A stretch of DNA of 64,000 nt from Opitutaceae bacterium (GTDB lineage Bacteria; Verrucomicrobiota; Verrucomicrobiia; Opitutales; Opitutaceae). Shown piece after piece: positions 1 through 40,730 of this stretch. The position numbers and the translations under genes are program-made. The stretch lies in assembly GCA_025355125.1 (NCBI GenBank), contig JANXLP010000490.1, forward strand, positions 49 to 64,048, in the 5' to 3' direction. The notes under the pieces were generated by a model, which worked only from the letters and a program-made list of their open reading frames with translations, was not told the DNA's origin and did not search any database. Within the stretch, counting starts at the first letter, position 1, and each line of letters starts with the position of its first letter.

Positions 1-10783
<10,783 letters not shown>

Positions 10784-10856: not shown

Positions 10857-11045
10857 ATGGTCACGCCGTCCGCTCCCGCACCCGACCTGATCGCACTGCT
10901 CGACGCCTGCGCCGCGCGCGGGATCACGCTCGAAGCGGGCGCCAACGGCGCGTTGAAGCTGCGGGCGCCCGAAGGAGCCCTTACACCAGAACTACGGGCC
11001 CAGCTTGCCGCCCAAAAACCCGCCCTCGTCGCGCTCCTCGCCGCG
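10857..11045 (+). other. TubC_N-like docking domain
   Basis: The pattern L..L...G..L......L.L.AP.GALTPEL...L...K..L..LL matches TubC-type N-terminal docking domains of PKS/NRPS interfaces. Confidence 0.6.
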
Positions 11046-14345: not shown

Positions 14346-14357
14346 CGGTAATAAAGG

Positions 14358-14376
14358 GGAGGCCAATTGAGCCTCC
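14358..14376. terminator. Weak hairpin between convergent genes (possible bidirectional terminator)
   Basis: ggaggc-caattga-gcctcc: 6-bp stem, 7-nt loop, no U-tract. Confidence 0.25.
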
Positions 14377-14413
14377 GTCACGGCGACACTCGCCGCGACG
14401 ACCCAGCCCGCCC

Positions 14414-17094: not shown

Positions 17095-17113
17095 GCCCAC
17101 CGCACCCACGACC

Positions 17114-24075: not shown

Positions 24076-24195
24076 CGCGACATCTTGCACCGCCCACGTC
24101 ACCCGTGGCAATGCGTCGCGCGCCCTTGCTGCGCTCTGCTGGCGCGCCCGCGAAAACCGCTTGCTCGCGCGCGACCCCAGCCGTCTCTTGGCGCG

Positions 24196-25428
24196 ATGGC
24201 GTCCTCCTCCGCTTCCCCGTCGCCCACCGCGTGGTGGACTCGTCCCGGGCTCGGCTACGTCCGCGGCGAATTGCACGTCGGCGGCCACGCCGTCGGCCCG
24301 CTCGCCCGCGCGCACGGCACTCCCCTCTACCTCTACGACGCCGCGCGCGTGACCGACAATCTCAGCCGCCTCCGCTCCGCCCTCACCGCTCGCGACCTGC
24401 CGTTTCGCGTCTGCTACGCGATGAAGTCCAACCGTCATCCGCCGCTCCTGCGCACCCTGCGACGCCTCGGCCAATGCGGCATCGACACCTGTTCGCCCGC
24501 CGAGGTCGCCCGCGCCCGCGCCTGCGGTTTCGCCGCCGAGAATATTTCCTTCACCGGCACCTCCCTCAGCGACGCCGATCTCAACACGCTCCTCCGCCAC
24601 GAGGGGCTCGTGATGAACCTCGACTCGCTGCACGACATCGCGCGCGTCGGCGCCCTCGCCCCCGGCCGCCGCATCGGCCTGCGCATCAATCCCGGCCTCG
24701 GCATCGGCTACCGTCGCAATCACCTCCTGCGCTACGCCGGCGGCGGCGGCACCAAGTTCGGCCTCCACCGCGAACAGTTTCCCGCCGCCCTCCGCCTCGC
24801 CCGCCGCCACGGACTCATCGTCGAGGGCCTCCATTTCCACACCGGCTGCGGCTACCTCACGCCGCAACTCCCCGTCCTCGACGAGATTTTCACCGCCTGC
24901 CGCGATTTCGTCCGCCGCGTCCCCGGCCTCCGCTACGTCAACATCGGCGGCGGCCTTGGCATTCCCCTCGTCGCCAGCGACCGCCCGCTCGATCTCGCGA
25001 AGTGGAGCGTCGTCGTCGCGCGTCATTTCGGCGGACACGGCCACGAGGTCTGGTGTGAGCCCGGCGACTACTTGGTGAAAGACGCCGGCGTCCTCGTCCT
25101 CGAGGTCAACACCGTCGAGCGCAAGGGCCGCACGCTCTACGCCGGCGTCAACGGCGGTTTCCAGCTCCACATCGAGCCCGCCTTTTACCAATTGCCCCTC
25201 GTGCCCGCGCCCGTGCGCGCCGCTTCCCCTCGCGCGCGCCTTCAGCCCACCACCATCGCCGGCCACATCAACGAAGCCCTCGACCTCCTCCACGCGGACG
25301 CGCCCCTTCCACCCCTCGCCAACGGCGACCTCCTCGCCTTCCTCAACGCCGGTGGCTACGGCGCCTCCATGGCCAGCAACCATTGTATGCGCGGCGACTT
25401 CACCGAAATCCTCCTGCCCGCCCCGTGA
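24196..25428 (+). CDS. PLP-dependent group IV decarboxylase (LysA / Orn-DAP-Arg decarboxylase family)
   Basis: C-terminal part of track ORF 23404..25428, starting at ATG 24196. HGTPLYLYD, PLP-Lys motif CYAMKSN, NIGGGLG, CEPGDYLV, AGGYGASMASN. The substrate cannot be assigned. Confidence 0.8.
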   Translation: MASSSASPSPTAWWTRPGLGYVRGELHVGGHAVGPLARAHGTPLYLYDAARVTDNLSRLRSALTARDLPFRVCYAMKSNRHPPLLRTLRRLGQCGIDTCSPAEVARARACGFAAENISFTGTSLSDADLNTLLRHEGLVMNLDSLHDIARVGALAPGRRIGLRINPGLGIGYRRNHLLRYAGGGGTKFGLHREQFPAALRLARRHGLIVEGLHFHTGCGYLTPQLPVLDEIFTACRDFVRRVPGLRYVNIGGGLGIPLVASDRPLDLAKWSVVVARHFGGHGHEVWCEPGDYLVKDAGVLVLEVNTVERKGRTLYAGVNGGFQLHIEPAFYQLPLVPAPVRAASPRARLQPTTIAGHINEALDLLHADAPLPPLANGDLLAFLNAGGYGASMASNHCMRGDFTEILLPAP

Positions 25429-26294
25429 AACCTCGCCCACACCCACGCCCTCGCCCTCGCCCCGCGCCCGCGCTCCTCGCCCGCACCCTCGCCGCCCTTC
25501 GCGCCGAGCTAGGCGACGATCCCGCCGTGGCCGCCATCGCACCCGCAGACGCCGCCACGCTCGCCGCCTCCGCCGGTGGCGATGCCCTTCGCCTCAAACG
25601 CTGGCTCAAGCGCCGCGCCTCCGGCGAACCCGTCGCCCACATCGTCGGCCACTTCACGTTTCGCGGCCTCAGCTTCGCCATCGATAAACGCGCCTACGTC
25701 ACCGATCCCGAGCTCACCCATCTCGTGGATGCCGTGCTCGCCCGCGCGAAAGCCCTCCGCGCCGCCGGCCGCCGCGCCCCCCTCCTCGCCGACTTCGGCG
25801 TCGGCTGCGGCAGCCTCGCCCTCGCGATCCGTCACCACCTGCCTGCGGCTCGCATCGTCGGCCTCGACCTCGACCCCGACGCCCTCGCCGTCGCCGCCCG
25901 CAACGCCACCGCGCACCGCCTCGCCTTGCGCCTCATCGAGAGCGACCTGTTCGACAGTTGGCCCACCACGCTCCGCGCGCCCGATCTCATCTACGGCGAT
26001 CCGCCCTGGGGCGATGCGACCACGCTCTACGAGACCACCGAACGCCCCGCCGGCCACTACCACGCCATGCCCCCGGTCTCGGCCTTTCCCCTCGGCGGCC
26101 GCACCGGCGTCCATGCGCAGATTCTCCGCGCCGTCGCCCGCCTCGGCTGGCACTCCGAGATCTGGCTCAACGGCGGCGTGCTTCCGCCCGCAGAACTCAC
26201 CGCTCTCGCCCGCAACGCCGGCGCCGCCGACTTCGCGATCGTCACACCGGCCCCCGGCTTGAGTCTACTCCGCTGCCGGATGCACCTCAGGTGA
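25425..26294 (+). CDS. PrmC/HemK-like SAM-dependent methyltransferase with a DPPW motif IV
   Basis: Track ORF is 25383..26294; the GTG at 25425 overlaps the upstream stop (GTGA). GEPVAHIVGHFTFRGLSFAIDKRAYVTDPELTHLVD is HemK-like. SAM motif I is LADFGVGCGSLA. Motif IV is GDPPW rather than NPPY. Confidence 0.65.
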   Translation: MKPRPHPRPRPRPAPALLARTLAALRAELGDDPAVAAIAPADAATLAASAGGDALRLKRWLKRRASGEPVAHIVGHFTFRGLSFAIDKRAYVTDPELTHLVDAVLARAKALRAAGRRAPLLADFGVGCGSLALAIRHHLPAARIVGLDLDPDALAVAARNATAHRLALRLIESDLFDSWPTTLRAPDLIYGDPPWGDATTLYETTERPAGHYHAMPPVSAFPLGGRTGVHAQILRAVARLGWHSEIWLNGGVLPPAELTALARNAGAADFAIVTPAPGLSLLRCRMHLR

Positions 26295-26321
26295 CTTTCT
26301 CACTGCTATTTGGGTGAAAGG

Positions 26322-26339
26322 AAGGGTGTCCAAAATTCC
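26322..26339. repeat. Left terminal inverted repeat of the IS
   Basis: aagggtgtccaaaattcc. Confidence 0.65.
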
Positions 26340-26391
26340 CCGTTGTAAACCAAGCGAGGAGGGCATGACGGCGGTCGCCGGCGAGCCGTAG

Positions 26392-27648
26392 CGAAGCAGA
26401 TTTGGCGGGCGTGCGCCCCCGTGCGGCAGCGCTCCGCAAACGCGCGAAAACGCCCGCAAGGCTCCGCTGTCGATTACCCTTGCGGAGCAGGTAGCAAAAT
26501 TTTCGGGTCTCATGGTCTCCTCCGACTCATTGCACTCGATCCTTTTTACGACACTCCACGCCCAAGCCAGCGGGCGTGGTTTTCTCCAGCAAGTCAGCCC
26601 GCTGCCGCCGGAGGGCCCGAGCCGAGGTCACTTTTTCGAGACGCTCAAAAGCCCCCGCCGGCTTGCTCCAGGCCAACGTCCTGCTTGCCCGCTTGCTGAC
26701 CGACGATCCCTTCGCTCACTCGGCGTGCTTGCGCGACTTCGACCTCTATGCGGCCGGCGGCCACTGGCACGGGGCCGCTGCCCATGCCCTCCCGCTCGAC
26801 GGGACCAAACGCGCGACCGGCCACTGCTTCGCGCTAAATTTGCGCACCCAAGCGCTCCTCCACCTCACTCGGGCGCAGGGGGAAAAGAACATGACATGCA
26901 CGCCCTCAAACGCCTCGACCTAGCCACCCTGCGCCACCATGCCCCGACCGGCCGCAAAGTGCTCTACGCCTACGACTGCGCCTCGATCGACTACGCCCAG
27001 TGGCACCACTGGAAACAAACCGGCGGCATCTATTTCGTTTCTCTCACCAAGCAGAAGATGGACCTGAGCGTCACCTGCCCGCGGGCCCTCGACCGGTCCG
27101 AGCCCAATCACGCGGGGATCACCGCCGACGAACTCGTCACGACCGTGGCCGGGATCGCCCTGCGGCGCATCCGCTACACGCAGCCGGCCACCGGCGAGGA
27201 GTATGAGTTCCTCACCAGCGAGTTCACGCTGCCGCCCGGAGTGATCGTCTTTCTCTACCTGCGGCGCCGGGATCTCGAAAAAGTCTTCGACGAACTCAAA
27301 AACAAGCTGGCGGCCAAACGCGCCTGGGCCAGCCGCCCCGCCGCGCAGATCATGCAGGCGCAGTTCCCCGGCCTCGCTTATAATCTGATCCAACTATTCG
27401 AGCGCCACCTCGCCGTAGCGCATCAGGTCCGCAACTACGCCGAGAACCAGCGCCGCGCGCGTCGGCTCGCGGCGCAACAGCACTTGGCCCGGGCCCGCAG
27501 CGCGGTCCTGCCCGCCCTCGTCCAGTCCCACCGGCGCCTCACGCAGACCAGTTTAAAACTCTGCCGCTGGCTCCACTGCCACTTCTTCAGCCCGCTTCCC
27601 CTGCCCATGCTATTGCCCGTTCTCTCCCGGTCCTACGCCCATCTTTGA
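26392..27648 (+). pseudogene. Frameshifted IS4-family transposase
   Basis: Protein-like sequence changes frame twice:
- Frame of 26512: SLHSILFTTLHAQASGRGFLQQ...GHFFETLKSPRRL.
- Frame of 26576: LLARLLTDDPFAHSACLRDFDLYAAGGHWHG...GHCFALNLRTQALLHL.
- Back to the frame of 26512 from about 26900: LYAYDCASIDYAQWHHWKQTGGIYFVSLTKQKM...YLRRRDLEKVFDELKNKL.
The last block resembles the Y..RW.IE..F..LK motif of IS4 transposases. Confidence 0.55.
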
Positions 27649-27650
27649 GT

Positions 27651-27669
27651 GGAAATTTTGGACACCCTT
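27651..27669. repeat. Right terminal inverted repeat of the IS
   Basis: ggaaattttggacaccctt, which is the reverse complement of the left repeat plus one extra t. Confidence 0.65.
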
Positions 27670-27704
27670 TGGCGAAATAGAAGTTGCCGACCACCGACAC
27701 ATAA

Positions 27705-28412
27705 TTGGAGTTTAACCCGTTGTCCACTCACCTGCACTCGCGCAAATTGAACGCGCACAACAAAACCGCGTGGGACCTCCTGTATGCCTCCACCCCGAAG
27801 TCGGTTTGGGGCCACAAGCCCGTCGGTTTTCTGATCCCTCACCTGCCCGCGCCCGAACTTCTCCCGCCCGGCGACATCCTCGACGCCGCCACCGGTGAGG
27901 GTCGCAATCTCGCGCCCCTCCTCGCGCTCGGCCGCCCCGTCACCGCCACCGACGCCTCCGCCTCCGCCCTCGCCAAGATCCCCGCCGATCTCGCCGCGCG
28001 CGTCACCCGCCTCCAGTGCGACCTCGCCGTCATCCCGGTGCCCGACCGCACGTTTGCCTTCGTTCTCCTCAGCGATGTCGTCGAGACACTCCCCGAGCCC
28101 GCCGCCGTGCTCGGCGAACTCCGCCGTCTCCTCGTCCCCGGCGGCCTCCTCCTCGTCAACATCCCCGGTGACGACGATGGCATCTCCGGCATCGACATGC
28201 AGCCCGCCCCGGATCGCGCCTGGCTCTACCGGGGCCGCTACTACTACAAATTTCATTCCCGCGCCGAGGCCGAGGCCCTGCTGGCCAACGCGGGTCTTGA
28301 ACTGGTCACGGTCCAGGTGATTGACTGGGAAGAAGACGCGCACCCCGAATTCCGCTCCGAACCCCACACCCACCGCAGCCTTGTCCTCCTCGCCCGACGC
28401 CCTCCGGCCTGA
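27705..28412 (+). CDS. Class I SAM-dependent methyltransferase
   Basis: 235 aa with a TTG start. Motif I ILDAATGEGRN, post-I TATDAS, motif III LLVPGGLLLV. The start lies 25 nt from the IS end. Confidence 0.65.
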   Translation: MEFNPLSTHLHSRKLNAHNKTAWDLLYASTPKSVWGHKPVGFLIPHLPAPELLPPGDILDAATGEGRNLAPLLALGRPVTATDASASALAKIPADLAARVTRLQCDLAVIPVPDRTFAFVLLSDVVETLPEPAAVLGELRRLLVPGGLLLVNIPGDDDGISGIDMQPAPDRAWLYRGRYYYKFHSRAEAEALLANAGLELVTVQVIDWEEDAHPEFRSEPHTHRSLVLLARRPPA

Positions 28413-28424
28413 TCGCCGCACCCC

Positions 28425-31400
28425 GTGACGCGGTTTGTCCAGCAACTGTTTCACATCGCCCCGGACGAAGGCTCCCGCATCGCCCGCTTCGCTCTGCTTG
28501 GCCTGCTCATTCAGGCCGGCCTCGCCCTCGGCACCAGCGCCGCCGACTCCCTCTTCCTCGTCAACGTCGGCGCCGAGAAACTCTCGCATATCTACATCCT
28601 GACGCCGGCGATGATGTTGCTCTACATCCCCGCCTACTCCGCCGCGCTCTCCCGCTGGGGCCTGGACCGCGTCTTCGACTGCACCCTCGCCCTGCTCGTC
28701 GCCGGCGGCCTCACCCTCTGGCTCCTGTGCCATCACTACGCCGCCGCCGAGCCGGTCGCCCTGTGCTACGCCGTCAAACTCTACTCCGCCCTCTGGTATG
28801 TCGGGCTCTACTCGCTGTTCTGGAATTTCATCGACGGCTACTTCGGCCTCACCGATGCCAAGCGCCTCTTCGCCCTCTTCGCCGCCGGCTCCGCCACCGG
28901 CGCCATCATCGGCGGCTCCCTCGTCGCCCCCATCTCCGCCCAATTCGGCGTCGCCACCCTCTTCCTCGGCTGGGCGATCTGCGCCGCCCTCGCCTGGCCC
29001 GTAGTGCTCATCACCCGACGCCGCACGCGCAAACTCGAATCCGACGAACCCGAGACCGCCGGTGGCTCATCCGCGCTGGCCGAGACCGCCGCCGCCGCCA
29101 AGCGCATCGCCGGTTCCCGCTACGCCCTCGTTCTCACCGCCGTTCTCTTTCTCACCCTGATCAACGCCACCGTCTGCGAATACCAATACATGGGCATCTT
29201 CGCCGCCGGCGTCGATGAAGCCACCCTCGCCGCCCTCCTCGGCAAGCTCACCGCGATGGTCAACGTCGTGAACCTCGCCGTCAGCCTCTTCTTCTTCAAC
29301 AAACTCGTCGCCCGCATCGGCGTGCGCAACGTCGCCCTCATCCAGCCCGTCGTTTACGCCGTCGTCTTCGCGTGGCTGCTCCTCAACGGCAGTTACCCCG
29401 CCGCCGTCGCCGGTTTTTTTGCCTACCAGGGCATCATGACCGCCATCGATTTCAACAACGTGAACCTCCTCTTCACCGGCCTACCCGCCGCCGGCCGCAA
29501 GCAGATCCGCACCGTCATCGAGGGTCTCTGCGAACCGCTCGCCACCGCCTCCGCCGGCTTGTTCCTCCTCTTCGCCGCCAGCCGCCTCAGCCCCGAACAG
29601 CTTTCCATCTCCGGCATCGTGGTCGCCCTTGCGTGCCTGGCCCTCGTCTTCGTTCTCCGCTACGATTACCTCAACGCCATCGCCGCCAATCTCCGCCGCG
29701 CGTGGCTCGATTTCTCCCGCCCCACCACTCCGCTTCTGAGTCGCGCCACCCCCGCCGATCTCGCGCTCGCCGAAGCCCGCACCCTCTCGCCCGATCCCGA
29801 TCTCGCCGCGTTCGCCCTGCGGATTCTCTGGCTCAACGACCCCGCGCGCCTCACCCGCGCGCTACCGCCCTTCCTCCACTCCGCCCCACCCGCGACCCGC
29901 CGCGCCGCCTTCCCCCTCATCGACGAAATCCTCGCCCAGCCCGCGTCGGAATCGGCCCAGGAAATCCGCCGCTGGCTCGACACCCGCCCGCCCGCCTCCG
30001 ATCCCGAACTCTCCGGCCAACTCGGCCGCAACGGCCTCCTCCCCGCTCACGCCGCCACGATCCTCACCCAATCCGGCCAACCCACCGCCCGCGCCGCCGG
30101 CGCCATCGTCCTCTGGCGCAGTTGGCGCGTCGGCGACAGCCACTCCGCCCTCCGCCAGATCGAGGCGCTCCTCGCCAGCGGCGACGAGGCCTCGTTGCTC
30201 GCCGGCCTCCGCGCCCTCGGCCAGCTGCGCGAGCCGCGCTACGCCTACCAGCTCCGCGACCACCTGCGCTCGCCCAACCCCGTCGTTCGCGGCGAGGCCC
30301 TCGCCGCCCTCGCCACGCTCGCGGATTCCACCTCGCGCGTTCTCCTCCCCGAGCTCCTCTCCACGTTCCCCGGCGGCACCGCCACCGAGCGCCACCTCGC
30401 GCTCGACGCCTTTGCCCGCATCGGCGACTCCGGCTCCCTCGCCGCACTCCTTGCCGGCGCCGGCACCTTCACCCCCAGCGAGCGCCGCCAGACCGAGCGC
30501 ATCATCGCCGGCCTCGGCGCCCGCGCCGTCCCCACGCTCATCGCCGTCGCCCAAAGCTCCGCCTACACCGTCACCGCGCGCTCCGTCGCCCTGCGCGCCC
30601 TCGGTAAACTCGCCCTCCCCCAGCTCCAGCTCCTCGCCGGTCCGCTCGTCGAGCTCACCACCCTCAAAGCTTACCTCGTCCTCAACGATTCCGTCCTCCT
30701 TGACCCCGGCGCCGCCGAACCCGGCCAGGCCGTCCTCCGGCGCATCTACCGCGACTACCCGCGCCTCGTCCTCTCCATCGTCCTAGAAACCCTCGCCGTC
30801 GCCGGTCGCCTGCCCAGTTTCGAATCCGTGCTCGCCGGTCTCGAAAGCAGCGAGGCCAAAGACCGCGGCTACGCCATCGAGACCGTCGAACAAGCCTGCG
30901 GCCGCGAGATCTTCGCCCTCCTCCTGCCGTTGATCGACGGCCGCCCCATCGAGGCACAGGTCGCCTTCGGTCGCGCCCGCGGGCTCATCCCCGAGGTCAC
31001 CGCCGACCAAGTCCTCGAACAGGCACTCCGCTCCGATTTCCCCCTCGAAGCCGCCGCCGCCGCTCAGGCGCGCCACGCCCTCGATCCCGAAGGTGCCGCC
31101 GAGCCGCTTCTCGCCAAACTCCGCACCATGCCCCGACCGTTGCTGCGCGAGACGGTGCTCACGTTGTTTGCCCGCCGCGCCGGTCGCGGCTCGCGCGCCA
31201 CCGCCCTCACGCCCATCGAGGCCGTGCATGCGCTGCTCGGCATCGCCCCGTTTTCCGGCGCGCTCTTCACGCACCTCGAGTTCATGGCGCCCCATCTCCG
31301 GCTCATCACCCCCGCCGCCGGCACCGTCCTCTGCCCACGCGGCGAGCCGCTCCCCGGCGCCTGGCTCGTGCGCGCGGGGACGATCCACATCGACGGCGGT

Positions 31401-31586
31401 CACTCGTTTCAGCCCGGCACCATCGCCGGCATCGGCGCGATTCACGGTGAACCCGTCGCCGCCGTCACGTTCACCGCCGGCCCCGGTCTCGAAGCGCTGT
31501 TTCTTCCCGCCGCCATCATCCACCGCTGCATCGAGACCTTCCCCGAGCTCGGCCTCAGCCTGCTCGCCAACGCCCCCGCTGCATGA
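28425..31586 (+). CDS. Multidomain membrane protein: TLC/MFS (ATP:ADP-antiporter-like) transporter domain - HEAT repeats - C-terminal cyclic-nucleotide-binding-like domain
   Basis: 1053 aa with a GTG start.
- Aa 1 to about 430: about 12 hydrophobic helices with the TLC-type motif FWNFIDGYFGLTDAKRLFALFAAGSATGAIIGG.
- Mid region: HEAT/PBS-lyase-like repeats (LLAGLRALGQLREPRYAYQLRDHLRSPNPVVRGEALAALATL, ERHLALDAFARIGDSGSLAALL).
- About 31200-31583: beta-roll cNMP-like domain (LITPAAGTVLCPRGEPLPGAWLVRAGTIHI). Confidence 0.65.
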   Translation: MTRFVQQLFHIAPDEGSRIARFALLGLLIQAGLALGTSAADSLFLVNVGAEKLSHIYILTPAMMLLYIPAYSAALSRWGLDRVFDCTLALLVAGGLTLWLLCHHYAAAEPVALCYAVKLYSALWYVGLYSLFWNFIDGYFGLTDAKRLFALFAAGSATGAIIGGSLVAPISAQFGVATLFLGWAICAALAWPVVLITRRRTRKLESDEPETAGGSSALAETAAAAKRIAGSRYALVLTAVLFLTLINATVCEYQYMGIFAAGVDEATLAALLGKLTAMVNVVNLAVSLFFFNKLVARIGVRNVALIQPVVYAVVFAWLLLNGSYPAAVAGFFAYQGIMTAIDFNNVNLLFTGLPAAGRKQIRTVIEGLCEPLATASAGLFLLFAASRLSPEQLSISGIVVALACLALVFVLRYDYLNAIAANLRRAWLDFSRPTTPLLSRATPADLALAEARTLSPDPDLAAFALRILWLNDPARLTRALPPFLHSAPPATRRAAFPLIDEILAQPASESAQEIRRWLDTRPPASDPELSGQLGRNGLLPAHAATILTQSGQPTARAAGAIVLWRSWRVGDSHSALRQIEALLASGDEASLLAGLRALGQLREPRYAYQLRDHLRSPNPVVRGEALAALATLADSTSRVLLPELLSTFPGGTATERHLALDAFARIGDSGSLAALLAGAGTFTPSERRQTERIIAGLGARAVPTLIAVAQSSAYTVTARSVALRALGKLALPQLQLLAGPLVELTTLKAYLVLNDSVLLDPGAAEPGQAVLRRIYRDYPRLVLSIVLETLAVAGRLPSFESVLAGLESSEAKDRGYAIETVEQACGREIFALLLPLIDGRPIEAQVAFGRARGLIPEVTADQVLEQALRSDFPLEAAAAAQARHALDPEGAAEPLLAKLRTMPRPLLRETVLTLFARRAGRGSRATALTPIEAVHALLGIAPFSGALFTHLEFMAPHLRLITPAAGTVLCPRGEPLPGAWLVRAGTIHIDGGHSFQPGTIAGIGAIHGEPVAAVTFTAGPGLEALFLPAAIIHRCIETFPELGLSLLANAPAA

Positions 31587-33676
31587 GCTCGCGCCTTCCC
31601 CGCCTCACGCTCCGCGGCTGGTTCCTCACCAGCCTCCTTTCCGTGCTCGCCGCGCTGATCGTCATTCAGGCCACGCACATCTACGTCTCGCTCAGCGATC
31701 TCATCACGCAGGGCTTCGACCGGAAGCTCCTCGCCATCTCCACCACCACCGCCGCTTTCATCGATCCCGCCGATCATGCCCGTCTCGTCGAACCCCTCCA
31801 ACTGACCGGCATCGCCCGCAACACCGCCGATGGCACCCTCCTCGCCTATGATCGCCGCAGCAGCGAATTCCTAAAAATCCGCCCCGCCGACGGTTTTGCC
31901 TCCGTCTCCACCCTGAAGCTTCCCCCCGGCTTCCACCAACTCGCCACCGGCACGGCTCCCGATACGCTCATCATCCTCGACGCCGCCACCGGCGAACTCC
32001 GCCTCTTCTCCCTGCGCACCGGCGAACACACCCCCCTCCACCGCCTGGAGCCGCCCGTGGTCGCCATCGCCTCCGATTCGGCCCGCGGCGTCCTCTACAT
32101 CGGAGGCCGCCACCTCGACCGGCTCGATCTCCGCACCGGCATCGTCACCCGCCTCGCGCAACTCCACGAACCCACCCGCGACCTCACCTTCGACCCCGAG
32201 CGCCAGACGCTCTGGGGCCTCGGCGAAAGCGGCTCTACCCTCCTCGATCTCAATTCCGCCGACGGTCTCCTCCGCCGCCGCATTCCCCTCGCGCAGGAAA
32301 AGCCCGAGGGCGCCGCCGAGACGTGGAAACCCGCGCCCGTCCGCCTCGTCGCTATCGTCTTCGACGAAGCCGCCAAAAAACTCCTCGGCACCGAACGCTC
32401 GCTCCTGCACATCGATCCCGCCACCGGCCTCGTTTCACCCAAAAAACTCCTCTCCGGCTTCGGTCGTGAGCTCGGCCCCGGCTACCTCCGCTACGCCGCG
32501 CCGATGCGCCGCATCACGAACCGCGCCAACCTCACCTTCCTCTACACCCAGCTCGTCACCGAGCGCGACCACATCATCTACGGGCTCGACGGCACCGTCG
32601 GCGAAAAACACTCCGCCATCCTCAGCACCGATACGCTCCCCGCCTCCGAGACCGCCGGCATCCAACAACTCCTCGCCGACGGCACCCCGCACCTCACGAC
32701 CGTCCGCGCTTGGGACCAGTGGGGCCTCCTCAAGAGCGCCTTCGCCCCCATCTTCGACGCCACCGGCCACCCCGTCGCCATGGTCGGGGCCGACGTCGAT
32801 ATCACCACCATCCGCTACGCCACTCATCGCGCCCTCGTCATCACCTTCGCCTTCGGTGCGCTGCTCCTCCTCGTCGCCGGCCTCCTCTCCCTCGCCATCG
32901 CGCGACAACTCGCCCGCCCCCTCGCACGCATCAAAGCCGCCGCCCTCCGCGCCGCCGCCGGCGACTACGCCCAACACGTCGCCGTCGCCCACCCCCGCGA
33001 GCTGCGCGAGCTCGCCGCCGGCTTCTCCAACGCCACCGCCGGTCTCGGCCGCCGCTTCGTGGAACTCGACGCTGCCGTCGCCGATGGCCGCGCCGTCCGT
33101 GATCGCGGCGCCCTCCTCACGCGTCTCGCCGATGTCCCCCCGCTCGCCGCCGCGCCTGCCCCCGGCGCCGTCTGGACTTGGGGCGCGCTCGATGCCGACG
33201 CCCCCGCGCCCGGCGGTGCCATCATCGCCGGCGACGCCGCGCTCGCCTGGTGCGGCGCCGCCGGGGCCGAACCTCTCATCGCCGCCGCCCACCGCGCCGA
33301 ACTCGCCGTCCTCGCCCACGCCCTGCTCACCCGCCACGGCGCCGATCCCGTCGTGCTCGCCCCGCTGCTGACCGCCCTCGCACCCAATGAAGTCGCAGCC
33401 TGGGTGCTCCTCACGTCTGCCGGCGTCCACGTGCTCGCCCGCCGCCCCGGCCTTGTCCACCGTCTAAGCCCCGGCTCCGCGCCCGCACCGCTGACGCCCG
33501 CCGCCTTCACCACTCCCATCGTCCCGGCTCCCGGTGAAGCCATCATCGTCACCTCGACTCCCGCCGGTCCGACATCCCCCGCAGCCGCTGCCCCCGCCAC
33601 CCTCGCCGCCTGGCGTCGCGCCGCCGCCGGTGCCCACACCGTCGGCTACGCCGTGATTTTCCAACCCTCCGCATGA
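31583..33676 (+). CDS. Membrane sensor: TM - large periplasmic domain (propeller-like repeats plus a Cache-like fold) - TM - HAMP - Ala-rich C-terminal domain
   Basis: 697 aa with an ATGA overlap to the upstream gene.
- Four repeats of the h-h-D-x-x-T/S-G type: ILDAATGELRLF, LDRLDLRTGIV, LLDLNSADGLL, LLHIDPATGLV.
- Cache-like end: WDQWGLLKSAFAPIFDATGHPVAMVGADVDI.
- TM: ALVITFAFGALLLLVAGLLSLAI.
- HAMP: ARQLARPLARIKAAALRAAAGDY...LRELAAGFSN.
- The C-terminal domain resembles a PP2C/SpoIIE fold lacking the metal-binding Asp residues (tentative). Confidence 0.55.
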   Translation: MSSRLPRLTLRGWFLTSLLSVLAALIVIQATHIYVSLSDLITQGFDRKLLAISTTTAAFIDPADHARLVEPLQLTGIARNTADGTLLAYDRRSSEFLKIRPADGFASVSTLKLPPGFHQLATGTAPDTLIILDAATGELRLFSLRTGEHTPLHRLEPPVVAIASDSARGVLYIGGRHLDRLDLRTGIVTRLAQLHEPTRDLTFDPERQTLWGLGESGSTLLDLNSADGLLRRRIPLAQEKPEGAAETWKPAPVRLVAIVFDEAAKKLLGTERSLLHIDPATGLVSPKKLLSGFGRELGPGYLRYAAPMRRITNRANLTFLYTQLVTERDHIIYGLDGTVGEKHSAILSTDTLPASETAGIQQLLADGTPHLTTVRAWDQWGLLKSAFAPIFDATGHPVAMVGADVDITTIRYATHRALVITFAFGALLLLVAGLLSLAIARQLARPLARIKAAALRAAAGDYAQHVAVAHPRELRELAAGFSNATAGLGRRFVELDAAVADGRAVRDRGALLTRLADVPPLAAAPAPGAVWTWGALDADAPAPGGAIIAGDAALAWCGAAGAEPLIAAAHRAELAVLAHALLTRHGADPVVLAPLLTALAPNEVAAWVLLTSAGVHVLARRPGLVHRLSPGSAPAPLTPAAFTTPIVPAPGEAIIVTSTPAGPTSPAAAAPATLAAWRRAAAGAHTVGYAVIFQPSA

Positions 33677-34104
33677 GCTCTGCCCCCACGGCTCTCTTCG
33701 CCCCGTCGCTCCTCGAAAAACTTTTCGCGCTGCGGGCCGTGTCTCCTTTCGACCGGTTGGCTCCCGCCGAACTCGCCCTCATCGCCGAGATCGCCGAACC
33801 CCGCGCCTACGCCCCCGGCGAAACCATCCACGCCGACGGTGATCGTCTCCTGCGCCTCGTCGCCGTCGTCGGCGGTCGCGTGCTCACGAGCGACGGCACC
33901 TCCGCCGGCACCTTGCTCGGCGCCGCCTCCCTCGTGCGCAACGCCCTCGCCCCGCACCTCGTCGCCGATCCCATCGCCGGCGCCCGCGTGCTCCGCCTCG
34001 AACGCGGCCCCTTCTTCACCCTCCTGCGCGAGTGCCCCGCCTTCACCCTCGGTCTGCTCGAACTCGGCGCAACCCCCGCTCCCGCTCCGGCTCCGCTCCC
34101 ATGA
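33673..34104 (+). CDS. Stand-alone cyclic-nucleotide-binding-like domain protein
   Basis: 143 aa with an ATGA overlap. LFALRAVSPFDRLAPAELALIAEIAEPRAYAPGETIHADGD...ARVLRLERGPFFTLLRECPAF follows the CAP/CNB beta-roll layout. The phosphate-binding cassette looks degenerate. Confidence 0.55.
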   Translation: MSSAPTALFAPSLLEKLFALRAVSPFDRLAPAELALIAEIAEPRAYAPGETIHADGDRLLRLVAVVGGRVLTSDGTSAGTLLGAASLVRNALAPHLVADPIAGARVLRLERGPFFTLLRECPAFTLGLLELGATPAPAPAPLP

Positions 34105-35420
34105 CGATCCGCCGGCAAATCCTTTTCTTCATTCTGCCGCTCTTCCTGGGATTTGGCGTCCTCTCCGGCGTGTTCTCCTGCTGGTTCAAACTCACTGAAG
34201 CCCGCGATGCCTTTGCCGACGGCTCCACCGCGCTCGCCCTCACCGCCGCCGAATTCATCGAGCCCGCCGATCTCGCCGCGCTGCGTGACGGAATTCCGCT
34301 TGAGCGCACGCGGTTAGGACCCGTCTTAGTTCGCCTGGAACGCTGGGCCCTGGTCCGCCGTTTTTATCTGCTCGATACCGCCAGCGGCAAGGTGCTGGCC
34401 GATATCGCGCCCGCCGGCACCCCCGTCGCCACCGCCGCCGAGATCGCCGCCCTCAAACCCGGCGAGATTGACCTGCTTCCCCTCCGCATCACGGCCGACG
34501 GACAATCGCGGCAGCCCGCCCTCGCGTTTACTGCCGCCCGCGGCGCGATCCTCGGCATCGAGACCTCGGCCGAGGATTATCTGGAGAGCCGGCGCGAAAT
34601 CTACCGCAGCGCCCTCTCCTACGGCATCCGCGCCTTCGTCGTCGGCCTCGCCCTCGCCTGGTGGATCGGGACCATGCTGCACCGCCAGATGCGCCGCCTC
34701 CAACTCACCGCCCAGGCCATCGGTGCCCCGGCGTTCGCCGCCACCGGCGTCTCCGACAGCGTCAGCGAAGTCGCCGATCTCGCCTCGACGTTTGGCGTCA
34801 TGCACAGCGTCAACGAGGAGACCGTGGACCGCACGCGCCGCTCCCTGGTGGACACCGATTACTATCGCGGCGAACGCGCCCTCACCGAGACCTTCCACGC
34901 GGCGTTCTCTCTTCGAGCCGCATGGAGCGGTGCCACCATCGACGCCGCGTGGCTGCCCGTGGGCGTGCCGCCTCCCGCCGCGCTCGCCGGCGCCGTCGCC
35001 ACCGGACCTGATTCCGGCGTGGCCTTCGCCGGCATCGCCGGCCCCGTCGGCGACCTCGCCGCCGCCCTCCGCGCCCGCGCCGCCACCCGCTATCTGGCCG
35101 AAGGCTTCGCCCTGCGCCCCGCCGCCGCCGTCGCCGCCGAAGCGCTCGCCCTCTTCACCTTGAACCGGCTCGAACTCGTCGTCTGGACCCCCGCCGGCCT
35201 CACGCGCTGGAACGCCGCTCACGACGCCCCGGCTGCGCCCGTCGCCTGGGACGGCAAACCCGTCGCCCTCACCTGCCTCGGCCCCATCAACGCCGAGCGG
35301 CTCGATCTCTATCTCGTGACGTTCCCCGCCCGCCCCGCCTCCGCCGCGCTCGACGATCTGCCGGCGCTCCTTGATGCTCAGGAACCCGGTGTGGTCCTCG
35401 TGCTGCGCCGCGCTACATGA
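34101..35420 (+). CDS. Membrane sensor paralog: TM - small periplasmic domain - TM - HAMP - Ala-rich C-terminal domain
   Basis: Track ORF is 34032..35420. ATG 34101 overlaps the upstream stop (ATGA), giving 439 aa. It shares the A.FI[DE]PAD...L motif, the HAMP placement and the C-terminal domain type (VAFAGIAGPVGDLAAALRARAA) with the 31583 gene. Confidence 0.5.
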   Translation: MTIRRQILFFILPLFLGFGVLSGVFSCWFKLTEARDAFADGSTALALTAAEFIEPADLAALRDGIPLERTRLGPVLVRLERWALVRRFYLLDTASGKVLADIAPAGTPVATAAEIAALKPGEIDLLPLRITADGQSRQPALAFTAARGAILGIETSAEDYLESRREIYRSALSYGIRAFVVGLALAWWIGTMLHRQMRRLQLTAQAIGAPAFAATGVSDSVSEVADLASTFGVMHSVNEETVDRTRRSLVDTDYYRGERALTETFHAAFSLRAAWSGATIDAAWLPVGVPPPAALAGAVATGPDSGVAFAGIAGPVGDLAAALRARAATRYLAEGFALRPAAAVAAEALALFTLNRLELVVWTPAGLTRWNAAHDAPAAPVAWDGKPVALTCLGPINAERLDLYLVTFPARPASAALDDLPALLDAQEPGVVLVLRRAT

Positions 35421-36802
35421 ACTCCATCATCCCCGCTCCCACGCTCGTCCCCACCGAGGCCCTGCTCGCGCACCAGATGATGTTCGACGGGGTCGCCCTC
35501 GTGCTGGCGCTGCTGCACCTCGCCCTGTTCGCCTTCGAGCCCCGCCAACGCGCCAACCTATTCTGCGGCCTCTTCGTCGCGTCCCTCGGCGCCGTCATTC
35601 ACGCCAACTTCGCCACCTTCCTCGATCCCCACGCCCTTTGGGCCGCGCGCATTTTTCCCGTCGCGATGGCCTTCGCGGTGGCGATGTGGCTGCGCACGCT
35701 GCACACCGTGTTCGCCGTGCGGCGGCCGTGGTTCTGGCGTATCCTCGTGCCGGTCGCCGCCGGCCTCGGCCTCTGGGGCGCACTGCAACCCGCGCGTTTC
35801 CACTACGGCCTGCTCGCCCTCATCGTCATCTCCGGCGCCCTCGCCACCGGCGAAGTCGGCCTCGCTTGGCGTGATCGCCGCCCCGGCTCCCGCCTGCTCG
35901 GCGTCGGCATGACCGTGTTTGGTTTACTCGTCGTTTACAGCGCGCTGCGCACCCTCGACCTCGCGCCCGATACCCCGCGGTCCGTCTTCGTTCCCGTTTA
36001 CGCCGGTGTCTGCGCCGCCCTCACCCTCTCGCTCTTTCTCGCGCAAAATCACGCCACGCTCTCCCGCCATGCCCTCGCCCTCGAACGCGAGAAACAATCC
36101 CTCGCCCTCGCCCGCGCCGACGAACTCGAACTCGTCGTCGCCGCCCGCACCTCCGAACTCCGCGATGAAAAGGGCCGCGTGGACGAGCTGCTCTACAACA
36201 TCCTCCCGCGCGAAACCGCCGACGAACTCAAGGCCACCGGCCGCGCCCTCCCCCGCCGCCACGAAGACGTCACCGTGCTCTTCACCGATTTCAAGGGCTT
36301 CACCAACACCGTTTCCGCGATGCCCGCCGACAAGCTCGTCACCGAGCTCAACGACATCTTCAACCGCTTCGACGACATCATGGATCGTCACGGCGTGCAG
36401 AAAATAAAAACCATCGGCGACGCCTACATGGCCGCTGGCGGCCTCCCCGGCCAGCCCGACGATGGCGCCGGCCGCATCGTCGCCGCCGCCCTCGAACTCA
36501 TCGCCACCATCGAGGAGCGCAACCTCCGCTCCGCCGTCAAATGGCACATGCGCCTCGGCGTCCACACCGGCGCGGTCGTCGCCGGCGTCATCGGCAAGCG
36601 TCGCCTCCTCTACGATCTCTTCGGCGACACCGTGAACATCGCCAACCGCATGGAAAGCCACGGCGAGCCCGGCCGCATCAACCTCTCGGCCTATTCCTAC
36701 GATCTCGTCCGCGCCCGCTTCGCCTGCGACTACCTCGGCAAGATCGACGTAAAGGGCAAAGGCGAGATCGACATGTATTGCGTCCGCGGCCCCGCCTCCT
36801 GA
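35417..36802 (+). CDS. Class III adenylate cyclase with an N-terminal multi-pass membrane domain
   Basis: 461 aa with an ATGA overlap. About 6-7 hydrophobic helices, a coiled coil, then the catalytic domain: VTVLFTDFKGFT (metal Asp), KIKTIGDAYMAAGG (Lys plus Asp), YDLFGDTVNIANRMES (Asn/Arg). The Lys...Asp specificity pair suggests ATP as substrate. Confidence 0.85.
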   Translation: MNSIIPAPTLVPTEALLAHQMMFDGVALVLALLHLALFAFEPRQRANLFCGLFVASLGAVIHANFATFLDPHALWAARIFPVAMAFAVAMWLRTLHTVFAVRRPWFWRILVPVAAGLGLWGALQPARFHYGLLALIVISGALATGEVGLAWRDRRPGSRLLGVGMTVFGLLVVYSALRTLDLAPDTPRSVFVPVYAGVCAALTLSLFLAQNHATLSRHALALEREKQSLALARADELELVVAARTSELRDEKGRVDELLYNILPRETADELKATGRALPRRHEDVTVLFTDFKGFTNTVSAMPADKLVTELNDIFNRFDDIMDRHGVQKIKTIGDAYMAAGGLPGQPDDGAGRIVAAALELIATIEERNLRSAVKWHMRLGVHTGAVVAGVIGKRRLLYDLFGDTVNIANRMESHGEPGRINLSAYSYDLVRARFACDYLGKIDVKGKGEIDMYCVRGPAS

Positions 36803-36899
36803 TCGCACGCCACGGGCAAAAACTTCCCGCGCCTTTTCCTTTGCCCGCCGGGCCTTTACCCGCCGACATACCCTTCGTCTCAACGCCCAAACCACTACC

Positions 36900-37973
36900 A
36901 TGAAACCTGCCCGCCTCCTCCTCACCGCGCTCGCCCTCGGGGCCGCCGTCACCGGCAACGCCCTCGCGGATTCGATCCGTCTCAAGAACGGCTCCGCCCT
37001 CGTCGGCACCGTGACTAAAACCGAAGCCGGAAAAATCTATTTCTCCGACTCCATTCTCGGCGAGCTCGTCCTCAACGAGGCCGATGTCACCGTCTCCAAG
37101 TCCGGCCCCACCGTCGCGCCCACGCCTGCTGAAGCCGCCCCCTCTGCGCCCACCGCCGGCCCCGCCATCTCCGTCGCCGCCTCCGCCGGCTCCGCCAATT
37201 TCCAAGGCCAGGCCAAAGACCCCAACAAGCCCGTCTGGACGAATTCCTTCAGCGTCGGCGGCAGCTACAACTCCGCCATCTTCGAGCAGGGCCAGTTGAA
37301 AAATGCCCCCGCCGGCGTCACCGGCGCAGCCCTCAAGCTCCCCGGCCGCACCTACGGCGTCCAAGCCTCGCTCAGCTTCATGCGCACCACGCAGAACGAC
37401 GCGCACTCCCTCGACTTCGCGCAGACCATCTCCGACTCCCAGCCCAACGGCAAAATCGCCGACAATTTCTCCAGCGTCTTCGCCTGGAATCATAAGCTGA
37501 CCGAACGCACCTACACCGTCAGCCGCACCTCCTACTCGATCGATAACGTCAAAAACATCGACTACTCCGCGATCCAGCTCTTCGGCTACGGCTACAAGGT
37601 CACCAACACCCAGCAGGCCAAGTTCGACGTCATCCCCGGCCTCCTCCTGATGCGCGAGAAGAAGGGCAACAAATACGACGACGAGACCATCGTCGGCGCC
37701 GGCTTCGCCGAGAGTTTCCTCTACCACTTCAACCCCTACGCCAGCTTCGAACAAAAGATGCTCTACCGCCGCAGCATCAAGGATAGCGACCTCTACGTCT
37801 TCGACGCCTACATCGGCTTCAAAGGCATGCTCTCCGCCAACCTCGGCCTCACGGTCGGCGTCAGCTACGTTTACGACAACACCCTCGGGCCACTCCCCGC
37901 CCCCTACTCCTTCGTCATCGCCCAAAAGAAGGATCTGATCCAGACGACCTACGGCCTGCAGTATAAGTTCTGA
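36900..37973 (+). CDS. Outer-membrane beta-barrel protein, DUF481/YdiY-like
   Basis: 357 aa. Signal peptide MKPARLLLTALALGAAVTGNALA, alternating beta-strand pattern, and a C-terminal ...YGLQYKF with terminal Phe. Confidence 0.65.
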   Translation: MKPARLLLTALALGAAVTGNALADSIRLKNGSALVGTVTKTEAGKIYFSDSILGELVLNEADVTVSKSGPTVAPTPAEAAPSAPTAGPAISVAASAGSANFQGQAKDPNKPVWTNSFSVGGSYNSAIFEQGQLKNAPAGVTGAALKLPGRTYGVQASLSFMRTTQNDAHSLDFAQTISDSQPNGKIADNFSSVFAWNHKLTERTYTVSRTSYSIDNVKNIDYSAIQLFGYGYKVTNTQQAKFDVIPGLLLMREKKGNKYDDETIVGAGFAESFLYHFNPYASFEQKMLYRRSIKDSDLYVFDAYIGFKGMLSANLGLTVGVSYVYDNTLGPLPAPYSFVIAQKKDLIQTTYGLQYKF

Positions 37974-38020
37974 TCTGGGTTAACCCTCCTCAACGTCGCG
38001 CCCACCGCGCGACCCACCCA

Positions 38021-38050
38021 GGCGCGCCGCACAACCGGCGCGCCTTTTTT
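38021..38050 (+). terminator. Rho-independent terminator
   Basis: ggcgcgccg (38021-38029) pairs with cggcgcgcc (38036-38044). 6-nt loop, then tttttt. Confidence 0.75.
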
Positions 38051-38118
38051 ATGCCCGTCATCGTAGCCAGGGTCGCCGCCCCCGGTTCATACCAACGTCA
38101 GCTGATTTTTTGACTTAT

Positions 38119-38145
38119 GGTAGCTGCGAGCGTGAGCGAGTGGTC
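38119..38145. repeat. Direct repeat, copy A
   Basis: ggtagctgcgagcgtgagcgagtggtc; 24 of 27 positions match copy B, which lies 106 bp downstream. Confidence 0.5.
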
Positions 38146-38224
38146 GTTCAACTATCGTCCAGATATCACCAGACGTTGGTATCACATCCCTCCGTATAGC
38201 GCCGGCGCTCGCCGAAGCCTTTCA

Positions 38225-38251
38225 GGTAGCCGCGAGCGCCAGCGAGTGGTC
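38225..38251. repeat. Direct repeat, copy B, overlapping a 9-bp-stem hairpin
   Basis: ggtagccgcgagcgccagcgagtggtc. Hairpin: ggcgctcgc (38204-38212) pairs with gcgagcgcc (38232-38240), 19-nt loop. Confidence 0.5.
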
Positions 38252-38310
38252 CGCCCGCCAGTTCTCAGCGTCCCTCCAACCCGCGCCCGAAACCGTCCCC
38301 ATCGTCGCCC

Positions 38311-40305: not shown

Positions 40306-40730
40306 GGCGCGGTCGCGGCCGGTCCCGCACTCTTCAGCCACGCCGCGAAATTAGCCGGCAACGCTTTCCGCTCCAGCGTTTGAATATCGATCGCCGTGTG
40401 ATCAGTGCGTGCGATCCCCACGAGCTTCTCCGTCGCGCCGAGGTGCACGATCCGATAGGAGAGGCCGAAGGCATTGTCGCCCACCGCCGTCGCCGTCAGC
40501 TCGATCCGCGCGCGATCACCGCTCTGCAACGGCCCGAGATACTGCGCCTGCACTTTCATGATCGGGATCAAGAGTCGGTTCTCGCCGAAAAATTTCCGCA
40601 GCTCGATGCCTGCGCCAAGGAGACTGGCCTCATACGCCTCGTGACAGAGCACGAGGTAGTTGGCGAAAAACAGAAACCCCGCGCCGTCCACATCGGCGAA
40701 TCGGATCGTGCGTTCGTAGGTCGTGCTCAT
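40302..40730 (-). CDS. Hotdog-fold thioesterase (4HBT/YbgC-like)
   Basis: 142 aa. TIRFADVDGAGFLFFANYLVLCHEAYE is typical of 4-hydroxybenzoyl-CoA-thioesterase-type hotdog proteins. It lies directly downstream of the last PKS gene. Confidence 0.7.
   Translation of the reverse strand: MSTTYERTIRFADVDGAGFLFFANYLVLCHEAYEASLLGAGIELRKFFGENRLLIPIMKVQAQYLGPLQSGDRARIELTATAVGDNAFGLSYRIVHLGATEKLVGIARTDHTAIDIQTLERKALPANFAAWLKSAGPAATAP

Follow-up and report, generated by a model that had tools for sequence, protein, structure and literature searches.

A six-gene locus with a conserved four-gene core

We examined a six-gene locus on the + strand (27705-36802) of a 64,000-nucleotide stretch of an Opitutaceae bacterium (assembly GCA_025355125.1, contig JANXLP010000490.1), hereafter the window. 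The genes encode a methyltransferase, a transporter fusion protein (G2), two membrane sensors (G3 and G5), a small protein with a cyclic nucleotide-binding (CNB) fold (G4) and an adenylate cyclase (G6). We found that a widespread, uncharacterised membrane cassette, whose core consists of four translationally coupled genes (G2 to G5), is represented here in its Opitutaceae form. The cyclase is a lineage-specific add-on, and the one catalytically competent output enzyme of the cassette varies by lineage. The six genes are as follows (TM, transmembrane helix).

27705..28412, + strand: class I S-adenosylmethionine (SAM)-dependent methyltransferase (Pfam Methyltransf_23/11/25, E ~1e-14)
28425..31586, + strand: G2, NTT/TLC-type 12-TM transporter (~aa 1-430), HEAT solenoid (~aa 435-940) and degenerate CNB domain (~aa 945-1050)
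31583..33676, + strand: G3, membrane sensor with TM1, periplasmic beta-propeller (~aa 60-285), Cache-like module (~aa 296-415), TM2, HAMP (aa 439-481) and pseudo-PP2C domain (~aa 520-697)
33673..34104, + strand: G4, free-standing 143-aa CNB-fold protein (family profile against CNB domains of the PDB)
34101..35420, + strand: G5, second membrane sensor with TM1, a single periplasmic Cache/PDC-like domain, TM2, HAMP-like helix and pseudo-PP2C domain
35417..36802, + strand: G6, 7TMR-DISM 7-TM domain (Pfam 7TMR-DISM_7TM, E 1.7e-12) and class III adenylate cyclase (Guanylate_cyc, PF00211, E 1.7e-54)

All six open reading frames (ORFs) lie where the initial annotation had placed them, and an independent gene caller made the same six calls on two public contigs of identical sequence. 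The four start/stop ATGA overlaps described there (31583, 33673, 34101 and 35417) were confirmed, as was the spacing of 12 nt between the methyltransferase stop codon (28410-28412) and the GTG start of G2 at 28425; the methyltransferase call itself also held. The 4-nt overlap is kept across related loci between G3 and G4 (58/67), between G4 and G5 (58/67) and between G2 and G3 (34/74), so this coupling is not due to chance.

Related loci were collected by scanning one genome per species with a G2-family profile. This confirmed 138 loci, of which the best 80 were analysed; all 80-locus counts below refer to these. They were examined by tblastn and with iterated family hidden Markov models (HMMs), built from the window proteins and run on six-frame ORFs. 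The HMMs replaced single-linkage clustering of six-frame ORFs, which was swamped by low-complexity antisense ORFs in GC-rich genomes. ORF-level HMM calls in GC-rich DNA are open to the same antisense-ORF confounding, and key families were cross-checked with Pfam.

G2, G3, G4 and G5 occur in the same order and on the same strand in 63 of the 64 loci that extend at least 4.5 kb 3' of G2 (61 by HMM and two more by tblastn). In the 80-locus sample this core spans 14 taxonomic groups and about 10 phyla. It was found in Opitutaceae, other Verrucomicrobiota, Kiritimatiellae, Victivallaceae, Cyanobacteria and Gemmatimonadota, and further in Lysobacterales, Bacteroidota, Bdellovibrionota, Leptonemataceae, Armatimonadota, Azospirillaceae and Sphingomonadales/Caulobacterales. 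The initial annotation had treated all five overlapping genes as one block; G2 to G5 are indeed co-conserved, but among the 80 loci orthologues of the 7TMR-DISM cyclase G6 are confined to five close Opitutaceae relatives of the window (L005, L006, L007, L012 and L018). Two loci show variant arrangements. A locus from Cyanobacteria UBA8530 (L040, 3177-10105) has the permuted order methyltransferase-G3-G4-G5-G2, and a minimal variant in Magnetospirillaceae (L053, 9974-14557) consists of G2, G4 and a fusion of a SET domain with a decarboxylase, with neither G3 nor G5.

G2 has the architecture of NTT-HEAT-cNBD proteins

Fusions of the types NTT-HEAT and NTT-HEAT-cNBD have been defined as a monophyletic, widespread and uncharacterised group that occurs in free-living bacteria, in Chlamydia trachomatis and in oomycetes (Major, Embley and Williams 2017, PMC5381601). 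G2 has the same three parts, namely an NTT/TLC-type 12-TM domain, a C-terminally fused HEAT region and a terminal CNB-type domain. Its AlphaFold model, built with 82 homologues (pLDDT 89.9, pTM 0.74), comprises a 12-helix membrane domain, an all-helical solenoid of ~500 aa (aa 435-940) and a C-terminal beta-barrel (residues 959-1028). When this model was compared with the PDB by Foldseek, the top three matches were the NTT1 ATP/ADP translocators 9j3n, 9j3m and 9j3l (TM 0.67-0.73), structures from Chlamydia pneumoniae and Arabidopsis that rank above other MFS carriers. In addition, BLASTP aligns the membrane domain to the C. trachomatis NTT-HEAT protein of the published dataset at 27% identity (E 3e-34).

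Pfam alone was less informative. The TLC match of G2 is sub-threshold (E 0.012), and PF03219 is recorded in several homologues; a PDB search with the single sequence of the transporter domain gave no match. HEAT_2 was found in five stretches (E 2.6e-8). The C-terminal CNB match is again sub-threshold (E 0.052), PF00027 is recorded in many homologues, and the domain cross-matches the G4 CNB HMM at 100 bits. The nucleotide-transporter-like domain proposed in the initial annotation is thus borne out by fold and by identity to the chlamydial protein, despite its Pfam score, and the HEAT and CNB assignments by HEAT_2 and by the modelled barrel together with PF00027 in homologues.

The earlier study also recorded a separate cNBD gene close 3' of some NTT-HEAT genes (PMC5381601). 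Its subject was the protein family only; the HAMP/pseudo-PP2C genes, the decarboxylase and methyltransferase genes and the partner-switching or cyclase outputs described below are not reported there.

G3 and G5 are predicted pseudophosphatase sensors

G3 and G5 are paralogues (hhalign, probability 99.6%), as the initial annotation had proposed for this pair of periplasmic-sensing HAMP proteins. The propeller of G3 matches YncE and 1l0q (E 1e-12), its second, Cache-like periplasmic module is strongly conserved, and its HAMP domain is recognised by Pfam (E 1.5e-8); the HAMP assignment in G5 draws only on homology to G3 and a weak match to HtrII. G5 has no Pfam match and its family no Pfam model. 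A word-indexed protein search returned 7-8 homologues of G5 even with a 30-sequence profile, and we therefore used an exhaustive representative search of a library of 1.84 billion proteins, which placed 514 representative clusters in the family.

The cytoplasmic domains of both proteins are related to PP2C phosphatases. In profile-profile comparison (hhalign) with active HAMP-PP2C paralogues from related loci, G3 aligned with a probability of 99.65% (E 5e-25) over aa 298-662, extending into the region of the TDG motif, and G5 aligned at 98.5%. The G5 family profile matched no PP2C among PDB sequences; the homology emerged from profile-profile comparison and from structure. The AlphaFold model of G5 (pLDDT 90.9) has a WalK-like architecture, and its Foldseek matches include the SpoIIE PP2C 5ucg (E 7e-4), the C-terminal PP2C domain of Pseudomonas aeruginosa RssB (3f79, TM 0.48) and the sensor domains of CitA/DcuS.

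The metal-binding aspartates of PP2C, in the GGD, DVSGKG, TDG and DD motifs, are invariant in 23 active paralogues. In the C-terminal domains of G3 (36 sequences) and G5 (30 and 98 sequences), no acidic column reaches 80%. Since the aspartates are invariant in the active paralogues and no conserved acidic column remains in the two families, we regard G3 and G5 as predicted pseudophosphatases, family-wide, that have lost all metal-binding aspartates. PF07228 (SpoIIE), which had been suggested as a check, matched neither protein even at E 10: the PP2C homology is real by profile and by structure, but the catalytic residues are gone. The inactive PP2C domain of the RssB family acts as a protein-binding module. 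RssB resembles the sensors in its PP2C fold and differs in being a soluble response regulator/adaptor, whereas G3 and G5 are membrane HAMP proteins.

The output enzyme varies among lineages

G6 retains all six class III catalytic residues when aligned with the C1/C2 domains of mammalian AC8 and AC5: both metal-binding Asp, the adenine-specifying Lys/Asp pair, Asn and Arg. The motifs FTDFKGFT, KIKTIGDAYM and YDLFGDTVNIANRME align to the AC8 and AC5 C1/C2 domains. The catalytic signature that the initial annotation had called intact is therefore complete, and judged by these residues G6 should be an active adenylate cyclase. Nevertheless, 72 of the 80 loci lack any class III cyclase within 10 kb of G2, and in one of the other eight (L053) it lies 4 kb off on the opposite strand.

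Half of the loci (40/80) carry instead a third HAMP-PP2C paralogue, active and RsbU-like, whose SpoIIE domain is recognised at E 1e-43 to 1e-53. Genes for STAS proteins (one to three) accompany it in 31 of these 40 loci and an RsbW-type HATPase_c_2 kinase in 30, while loci lacking the active PP2C have neither STAS nor HATPase_c_2 kinase. By domain content, the loci with all three hold a complete partner-switching set. No active PP2C, STAS or HATPase_c_2 gene was found in the 64-kb window.

Two loci outside Opitutaceae have a HAMP-cyclase in this role. In L023 (Bacteroidota, 8256-9968) the sensor/HAMP half of the third paralogue is kept (hhalign 100%, E 5e-53), but a class III cyclase, with TPR, stands where the PP2C domain would be; L030 (Bdellovibrionota, 17104-18987) encodes a similar HAMP-cyclase that hhalign relates to the third paralogue at 96%. 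The cassette has recruited class III cyclases on at least three occasions (Opitutaceae, Bacteroidota, Bdellovibrionota), one of which is a clean swap of PP2C for cyclase. This repeated recruitment argues that G6 is probably a genuine output of the system in the window lineage.

Other fusions and neighbours were seen at loci with partner-switching genes. In Niveispirillum irakense and Azospirillum sp. RU38E (L055/L083, 14807-16893; L058, 14816-16585), G5 bears an extra C-terminal RsbW-type HATPase_c_2 kinase domain, which places a pseudo-phosphatase sensor and a partner-switching kinase on one polypeptide; at L055/L083 a STAS gene follows the fusion. In other Verrucomicrobiota/Kiritimatiellae (L038, 3261-6902; upstream in L046, L047, L049 and L050; L026, 2708-5949), upstream STAS and kinase genes are interspersed with genes for a GlcNAc-2-epimerase-like protein and an isoamylase-like glycoside hydrolase, which hints at a carbohydrate-related neighbourhood.

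The closest studied analogue of the cassette is the Rsb system of Chlamydia, which comprises an active membrane RsbU (CT588), its paralogue CT589 lacking metal ligands, RsbV1/V2 and RsbW (Thompson et al. 2015, PMC4552016). In both systems, active and metal-ligand-less membrane paralogues share a layout of periplasmic domain, HAMP and cytoplasmic PP2C domain. At half of the related loci, a single RsbW-type kinase and between one and three STAS proteins are encoded as well. Furthermore, Chlamydia is likewise a member of the PVC superphylum, and an NTT-HEAT gene is present in its genome (PMC5381601). The window differs in having two pseudo-phosphatases and no active PP2C, STAS protein or kinase. 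We also considered whether CT590, which lies beside CT589 and rsbU in C. trachomatis, is the NTT-HEAT gene; this was rejected, as the published transposon-junction peptide RVQDL (aa 123-127) is absent from the NTT-HEAT N-terminus.

These parallels raise the alternative that the window cassette is an Rsb-type partner-switching system of the chlamydial kind, with its STAS protein, kinase and active phosphatase encoded elsewhere in the genome and with a sigma factor or other regulator, rather than the transporter, as its target. The partner-switching genes at half of the related loci and the active/pseudo RsbU/CT589 pair of Chlamydia, an organism that also has an NTT-HEAT gene, would fit this. 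We nonetheless find it doubtful. Neither the window nor the surroundings of the cassette in Cyanobacteria, Gemmatimonadota, Leptonemataceae and most close Opitutaceae contain such genes, and it is G2 and G4, rather than partner-switching proteins, that invariably accompany the sensors.

A second system with a membrane HAMP-PP2C sensor and a nucleotide second-messenger cyclase is SiaABCD of P. aeruginosa (HAMP-PP2C SiaA, kinase SiaB, substrate SiaC and diguanylate cyclase SiaD). The HAMP regions of G3 and G5 weakly match the SiaA model, and the active third paralogue matches, among other PDB entries, the SiaA PP2C structure 6k4e. However, homologues of SiaB, SiaC and SiaD are missing, the PP2C domains of the window are dead, and a class III adenylate cyclase takes the place of the GGDEF enzyme.

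Cyclases next to proteins with CNB domains are also found in Pycsar anti-phage systems, in which CNB-domain proteins are the effectors. G6 matches the PycC model of PADLOC (E 3e-16), and CNB-domain membrane proteins adjoin it. This match is far weaker than that to the generic Guanylate_cyc model, G6 has the ATP-specifying Lys/Asp pair, and the core order is fixed across phyla without a cyclase, unlike the order of mobile defence islands. With a generic match for G6 and no PADLOC match for G2 to G5, we rejected this reading as very improbable.

The CNB domains lack canonical ligand contacts

G4 has no Pfam match, and its fold was recognised with a profile of 30 family sequences, which matches the CNB domains of PKG (E 3.5e-25), PKA and MloK1 (~E 5e-7). 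It is present in 67 of the 80 loci by HMM and in two more by tblastn. T116 and the motif C121-P122 are invariant or nearly so. In contrast, the FGE and R-[ST]-A elements, whose Glu and Arg contact the cyclic phosphate, are not conserved among the 30 sequences, and the phosphate-binding cassette of the window protein is one residue short. The CNB domain of G2 lacks the cassette Arg in the window clade; some distant clades retain an Arg at the canonical position. The two receiver domains for cyclic nucleoside monophosphates (cNMPs) named in the initial annotation are hence present as CNB folds in G2 and G4, but both are without the canonical cNMP-contacting Glu and Arg.

The order of domains in G2 recalls SLC9C1 and channels of the CNG/HCN type, in which a membrane transport domain is likewise followed by a cytoplasmic CNB domain; SLC9C1 and HCN4 are among the structural matches of G2. 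Their transport domains are unrelated to that of G2, however, and their CNB domains bind cAMP/cGMP through the canonical residues that the cassette is missing.

The initial annotation had described the set as built around cAMP. In this circuit, cAMP made by G6 would bind the CNB domains of G2 and G4 and gate the transporter, with G3 and G5 as periplasmic input. Control of ATP uptake by cAMP has also been proposed for the NTT-HEAT-cNBD family (PMC5381601), a proposal from which the window cassette departs in the contact residues of its CNB domains. The circuit gains from a catalytically intact, ATP-specific G6 whose gene is ATGA-coupled to G5, and from two CNB-fold domains in the same operon. 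The independent entry of cyclases in three lineages, being repeated, supports a real functional tie. On the other side, the CNB domains are equally conserved in the 72 loci without a nearby class III cyclase, the phosphate-binding-cassette Glu and Arg are missing from G4 and from window-clade G2, and the CNB domains of the cyclase-bearing loci L023 and L030 are no more canonical. The set as a whole is therefore not built around cAMP, and we consider gating of the transporter by cAMP unlikely.

Decarboxylase and methyltransferase genes belong to the unit

The cassette extends upstream of the six genes, where we found the following features.

24196..25428, + strand: LysA-like pyridoxal phosphate (PLP)-dependent decarboxylase of the Orn/DAP/Arg decarboxylase fold (NCBIfam lysA, E 4e-67, below the equivalog cut-off)
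25425..26294, + strand: PrmC/HemK-like methyltransferase of the MTS family (Pfam MTS, Methyltransf_25; NCBIfam PrmC, E 3e-27, below cut-off)
26322..27669, strand not given: insertion sequence (IS) with 19-nt terminal inverted repeats, AAGGGTGTCCAAAATTCCC / GGAAATTTTGGACACCCTT, 95% complementary
26512-27648: degenerate DDE transposase ORF of this IS, 378 aa, with a weak DDE_Tnp_1 match

The initial annotation had let the unit run from 27705 to 36802. Its six genes stand, but the true unit is larger, since it includes the LysA-like decarboxylase and the PrmC-like methyltransferase, which are cut off from the rest by the IS. Counted from the ATG at 24196, the decarboxylase has 410 aa, equal to its orthologue in L061. 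By iterated HMM its gene adjoins the cassette in 55 of 80 loci across phyla, and the PrmC-like gene accompanies the cassette in 29. A GTGA overlap between the decarboxylase stop and the PrmC-like start is possible; the gene caller chose 25527. The IS sits between the PrmC-like and class I methyltransferase genes, which adjoin in relatives without the element, and it may split or re-promote the operon.

The class I methyltransferase is encoded immediately 5' of G2 in 34 of the 80 loci. Its best named relative, far below cut-off, is an amine N,N-dimethylating daptide methyltransferase (NCBIfam daptide_MTase, E 2e-12). A SET-domain protein takes its place in Alphaproteobacteria. The methyltransferase accessories therefore comprise three unrelated folds (class I, PrmC-like and SET), two of which are found fused to the decarboxylase. 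A C-terminal class I methyltransferase fusion was identified with Pfam in metagenome-assembled genomes of Lysobacter (L033, 1956-4076) and Opitutaceae (L047, 8027-9985), and ORFs of matching length occur in other Lysobacterales and Verrucomicrobiota loci; Pseudomarimonas salicorniae (L034) is a further host of a decarboxylase::methyltransferase fusion. An N-terminal SET fusion occurs in L053 (12827-14557) and in L069 from Sphingopyxis (16378-18090). Two independent fusions of the decarboxylase with unrelated methyltransferase folds argue that decarboxylation and N-methylation serve one pathway.

On the - strand, the decarboxylase gene is overlapped by an ORF of 708-740 aa (23320-25542) that gene callers report as a long phosphopantetheinyl transferase (PPTase). 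This ORF is chimeric: the part at 23376-23949 (the last ~200 aa) holds ACPS/AASDHPPT domains, and the remainder is the antisense shadow of the decarboxylase. The true models are likely a PPTase at 23320-24075 (-) and the decarboxylase at 24196-25428 (+). Apparent tblastn matches to the PPTase beside the cassette in many phyla were discarded as antisense shadows of the decarboxylase gene; only at three loci (the window, L004 and L066) does a real PPTase domain lie next to the cassette.

It could be proposed that the cassette is a self-contained loop in which a small N-methylated molecule of the lysine or diamine type is synthesised, transported and sensed. The LysA-like decarboxylase and its fused or adjacent N-methyltransferases would make the molecule, the NTT-HEAT transporter would carry it across the inner membrane, and the periplasmic modules of the RsbU-like sensor and pseudo-sensors would detect it, with output through a partner-switching phosphorelay or, in the window, through cAMP. 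If true, this would amount to an unrecognised signalling system of the autocrine or quorum type across the ~10 sampled phyla, and would for the first time place the NTT-HEAT proteins of Chlamydia and oomycetes in a functional context. We give this full loop only a small chance of being correct.

Flanking genes and transcription signals

Genes for polyketide synthases (PKS) and nonribosomal peptide synthetases (NRPS) lie on both flanks of the six genes in the window, in agreement with the initial annotation, which had described the cassette as wedged between two megasynthase arms. Among the products of the flanking genes at 2903-15271 and 38311-63949 are a loading PKS that carries AMP-binding and luciferase-like monooxygenase domains and a TubC-docking NRPS, together with a WelO5-like halogenase (14414-15271) and a carbamoyltransferase (38311-40341).

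The cassette might accordingly be an accessory of this cluster, a sensor-controlled exporter or regulator whose decarboxylase and methyltransferases are tailoring enzymes. In several Opitutaceae the carbamoyltransferase-PKS arm is conserved beside the cassette. Of 13 long close-Opitutaceae loci, 10 have a gene for a carbamoyltransferase, PKS or NRPS within 10 kb of the cassette, as do L025, L057 and L066, and a PPTase gene abuts it at the three loci named above. Such genes were found near the cassette in no other phylum, however: it occurs, decarboxylase and methyltransferases included, without PKS/NRPS in Lysobacterales, Sphingomonadales, Azospirillaceae, Cyanobacteria and Gemmatimonadota, and likewise in Kiritimatiellae, Bacteroidota, Bdellovibrionota and Leptonemataceae. 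Moreover, synteny with L004 extends to unrelated genes of the window (ABC, SPFH, SBP), and the adjacency may therefore reflect no more than conserved gene order at the family level. We give a role as a biosynthetic accessory a low probability.

Two further features lie 3' of the six genes.

36900..37973, + strand: DUF481 protein (Pfam DUF481, E 1.3e-17)
38020..38045, + strand: terminator-like hairpin with a 10-bp stem, 9 G-C pairs and a T tract, 3' of the DUF481 gene

The DUF481 gene is a conserved downstream neighbour in close Opitutaceae only (8 loci). The hairpin is the strongest terminator-like site on the + strand 3' of the methyltransferase start at 27705, and between 27705 and 37973 the terminator scan gave just weak stems of 5-6 bp. 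By its sequence, the hairpin likely marks the 3' end of the transcription unit. No sigma-70-like promoter was matched in 23000-38600, and Rfam gave no match across the whole window.

Over the window (1-64000), GC skew on the + strand lies between +0.04 and +0.12 at 1-10 kb and between -0.2 and -0.35 at 22-64 kb, with cumulative skew peaking near 10-12 kb. A skew of this strength is unusual, and it does not depend on gene orientation. The change could mark a replication terminus or a rearrangement boundary.

A model for the cassette

Altogether, we think the locus is best explained as a widespread transporter-sensor cassette in which the core proteins form a complex, a basic N-methylated molecule is handled, and cAMP is the read-out in the window lineage; taken as a whole, we hold this explanation with moderate confidence. 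G2, G3, G4 and G5 would form one membrane complex. Ligand at the periplasmic modules of G3 and G5 would act through HAMP on the pseudo-PP2C domains; docked on the HEAT/CNB arm of G2 or influencing it allosterically, these would set the activity of the transporter. The decarboxylase and the methyltransferases would make or modify a small basic molecule, lysine- or diamine-like and N-methylated, that is either moved by the transporter or detected by the sensors. In the window lineage, the state of the complex would be reported to the cell as cAMP by G6 and not by a partner-switching phosphorelay.

Several points weigh against this model. That the proteins form a complex, what the transporter carries and in which direction, and what the decarboxylase and methyltransferases produce are all deduced from fusions, folds and the order of genes. 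The collection of loci started from G2, which makes co-conservation conditional on the presence of G2, and the sample is the best 80 of 138. In the PDB, the periplasmic sequence profiles of G3 and G5 found no domain with a defined ligand, and it is the structural model of G5 alone that resembles CitA/DcuS. The PrmC-like and SET enzymes come from protein-methylating families, and a cassette protein rather than a small molecule could be the target of methylation. The 7TMR-DISM cyclase is no paralogue of the sensors and could respond to a separate signal of its own. Finally, the IS parts the decarboxylase and PrmC-like genes from the rest, and the local copy may be mis-regulated.

Full-text literature searches returned no description of this gene combination, in line with the initial annotation, which had not recognised the set as a described system. 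The cassette data suggest a possible ancestry for the RsbU/CT589 pair of Chlamydia. They also raise the questions of which amine is made by the decarboxylase::methyltransferase fusions, whether dead PP2C domains dock on the HEAT arm and whether the transporter carries nucleotides; hosts in which these could be pursued include cultivable members of Niveispirillum, Novosphingobium, Sphingopyxis and Pseudomarimonas. The cassette offers a natural example of an output swap, from PP2C to cyclase, on a single sensor chassis. With it, the orphan NTT-HEAT family becomes a defined multi-gene system: in the sampled loci the transporter is almost never on its own, but is accompanied by a degenerate CNB protein and two pseudo-phosphatase sensors, and in most cases also by a swappable output and a pair of decarboxylase and methyltransferase.

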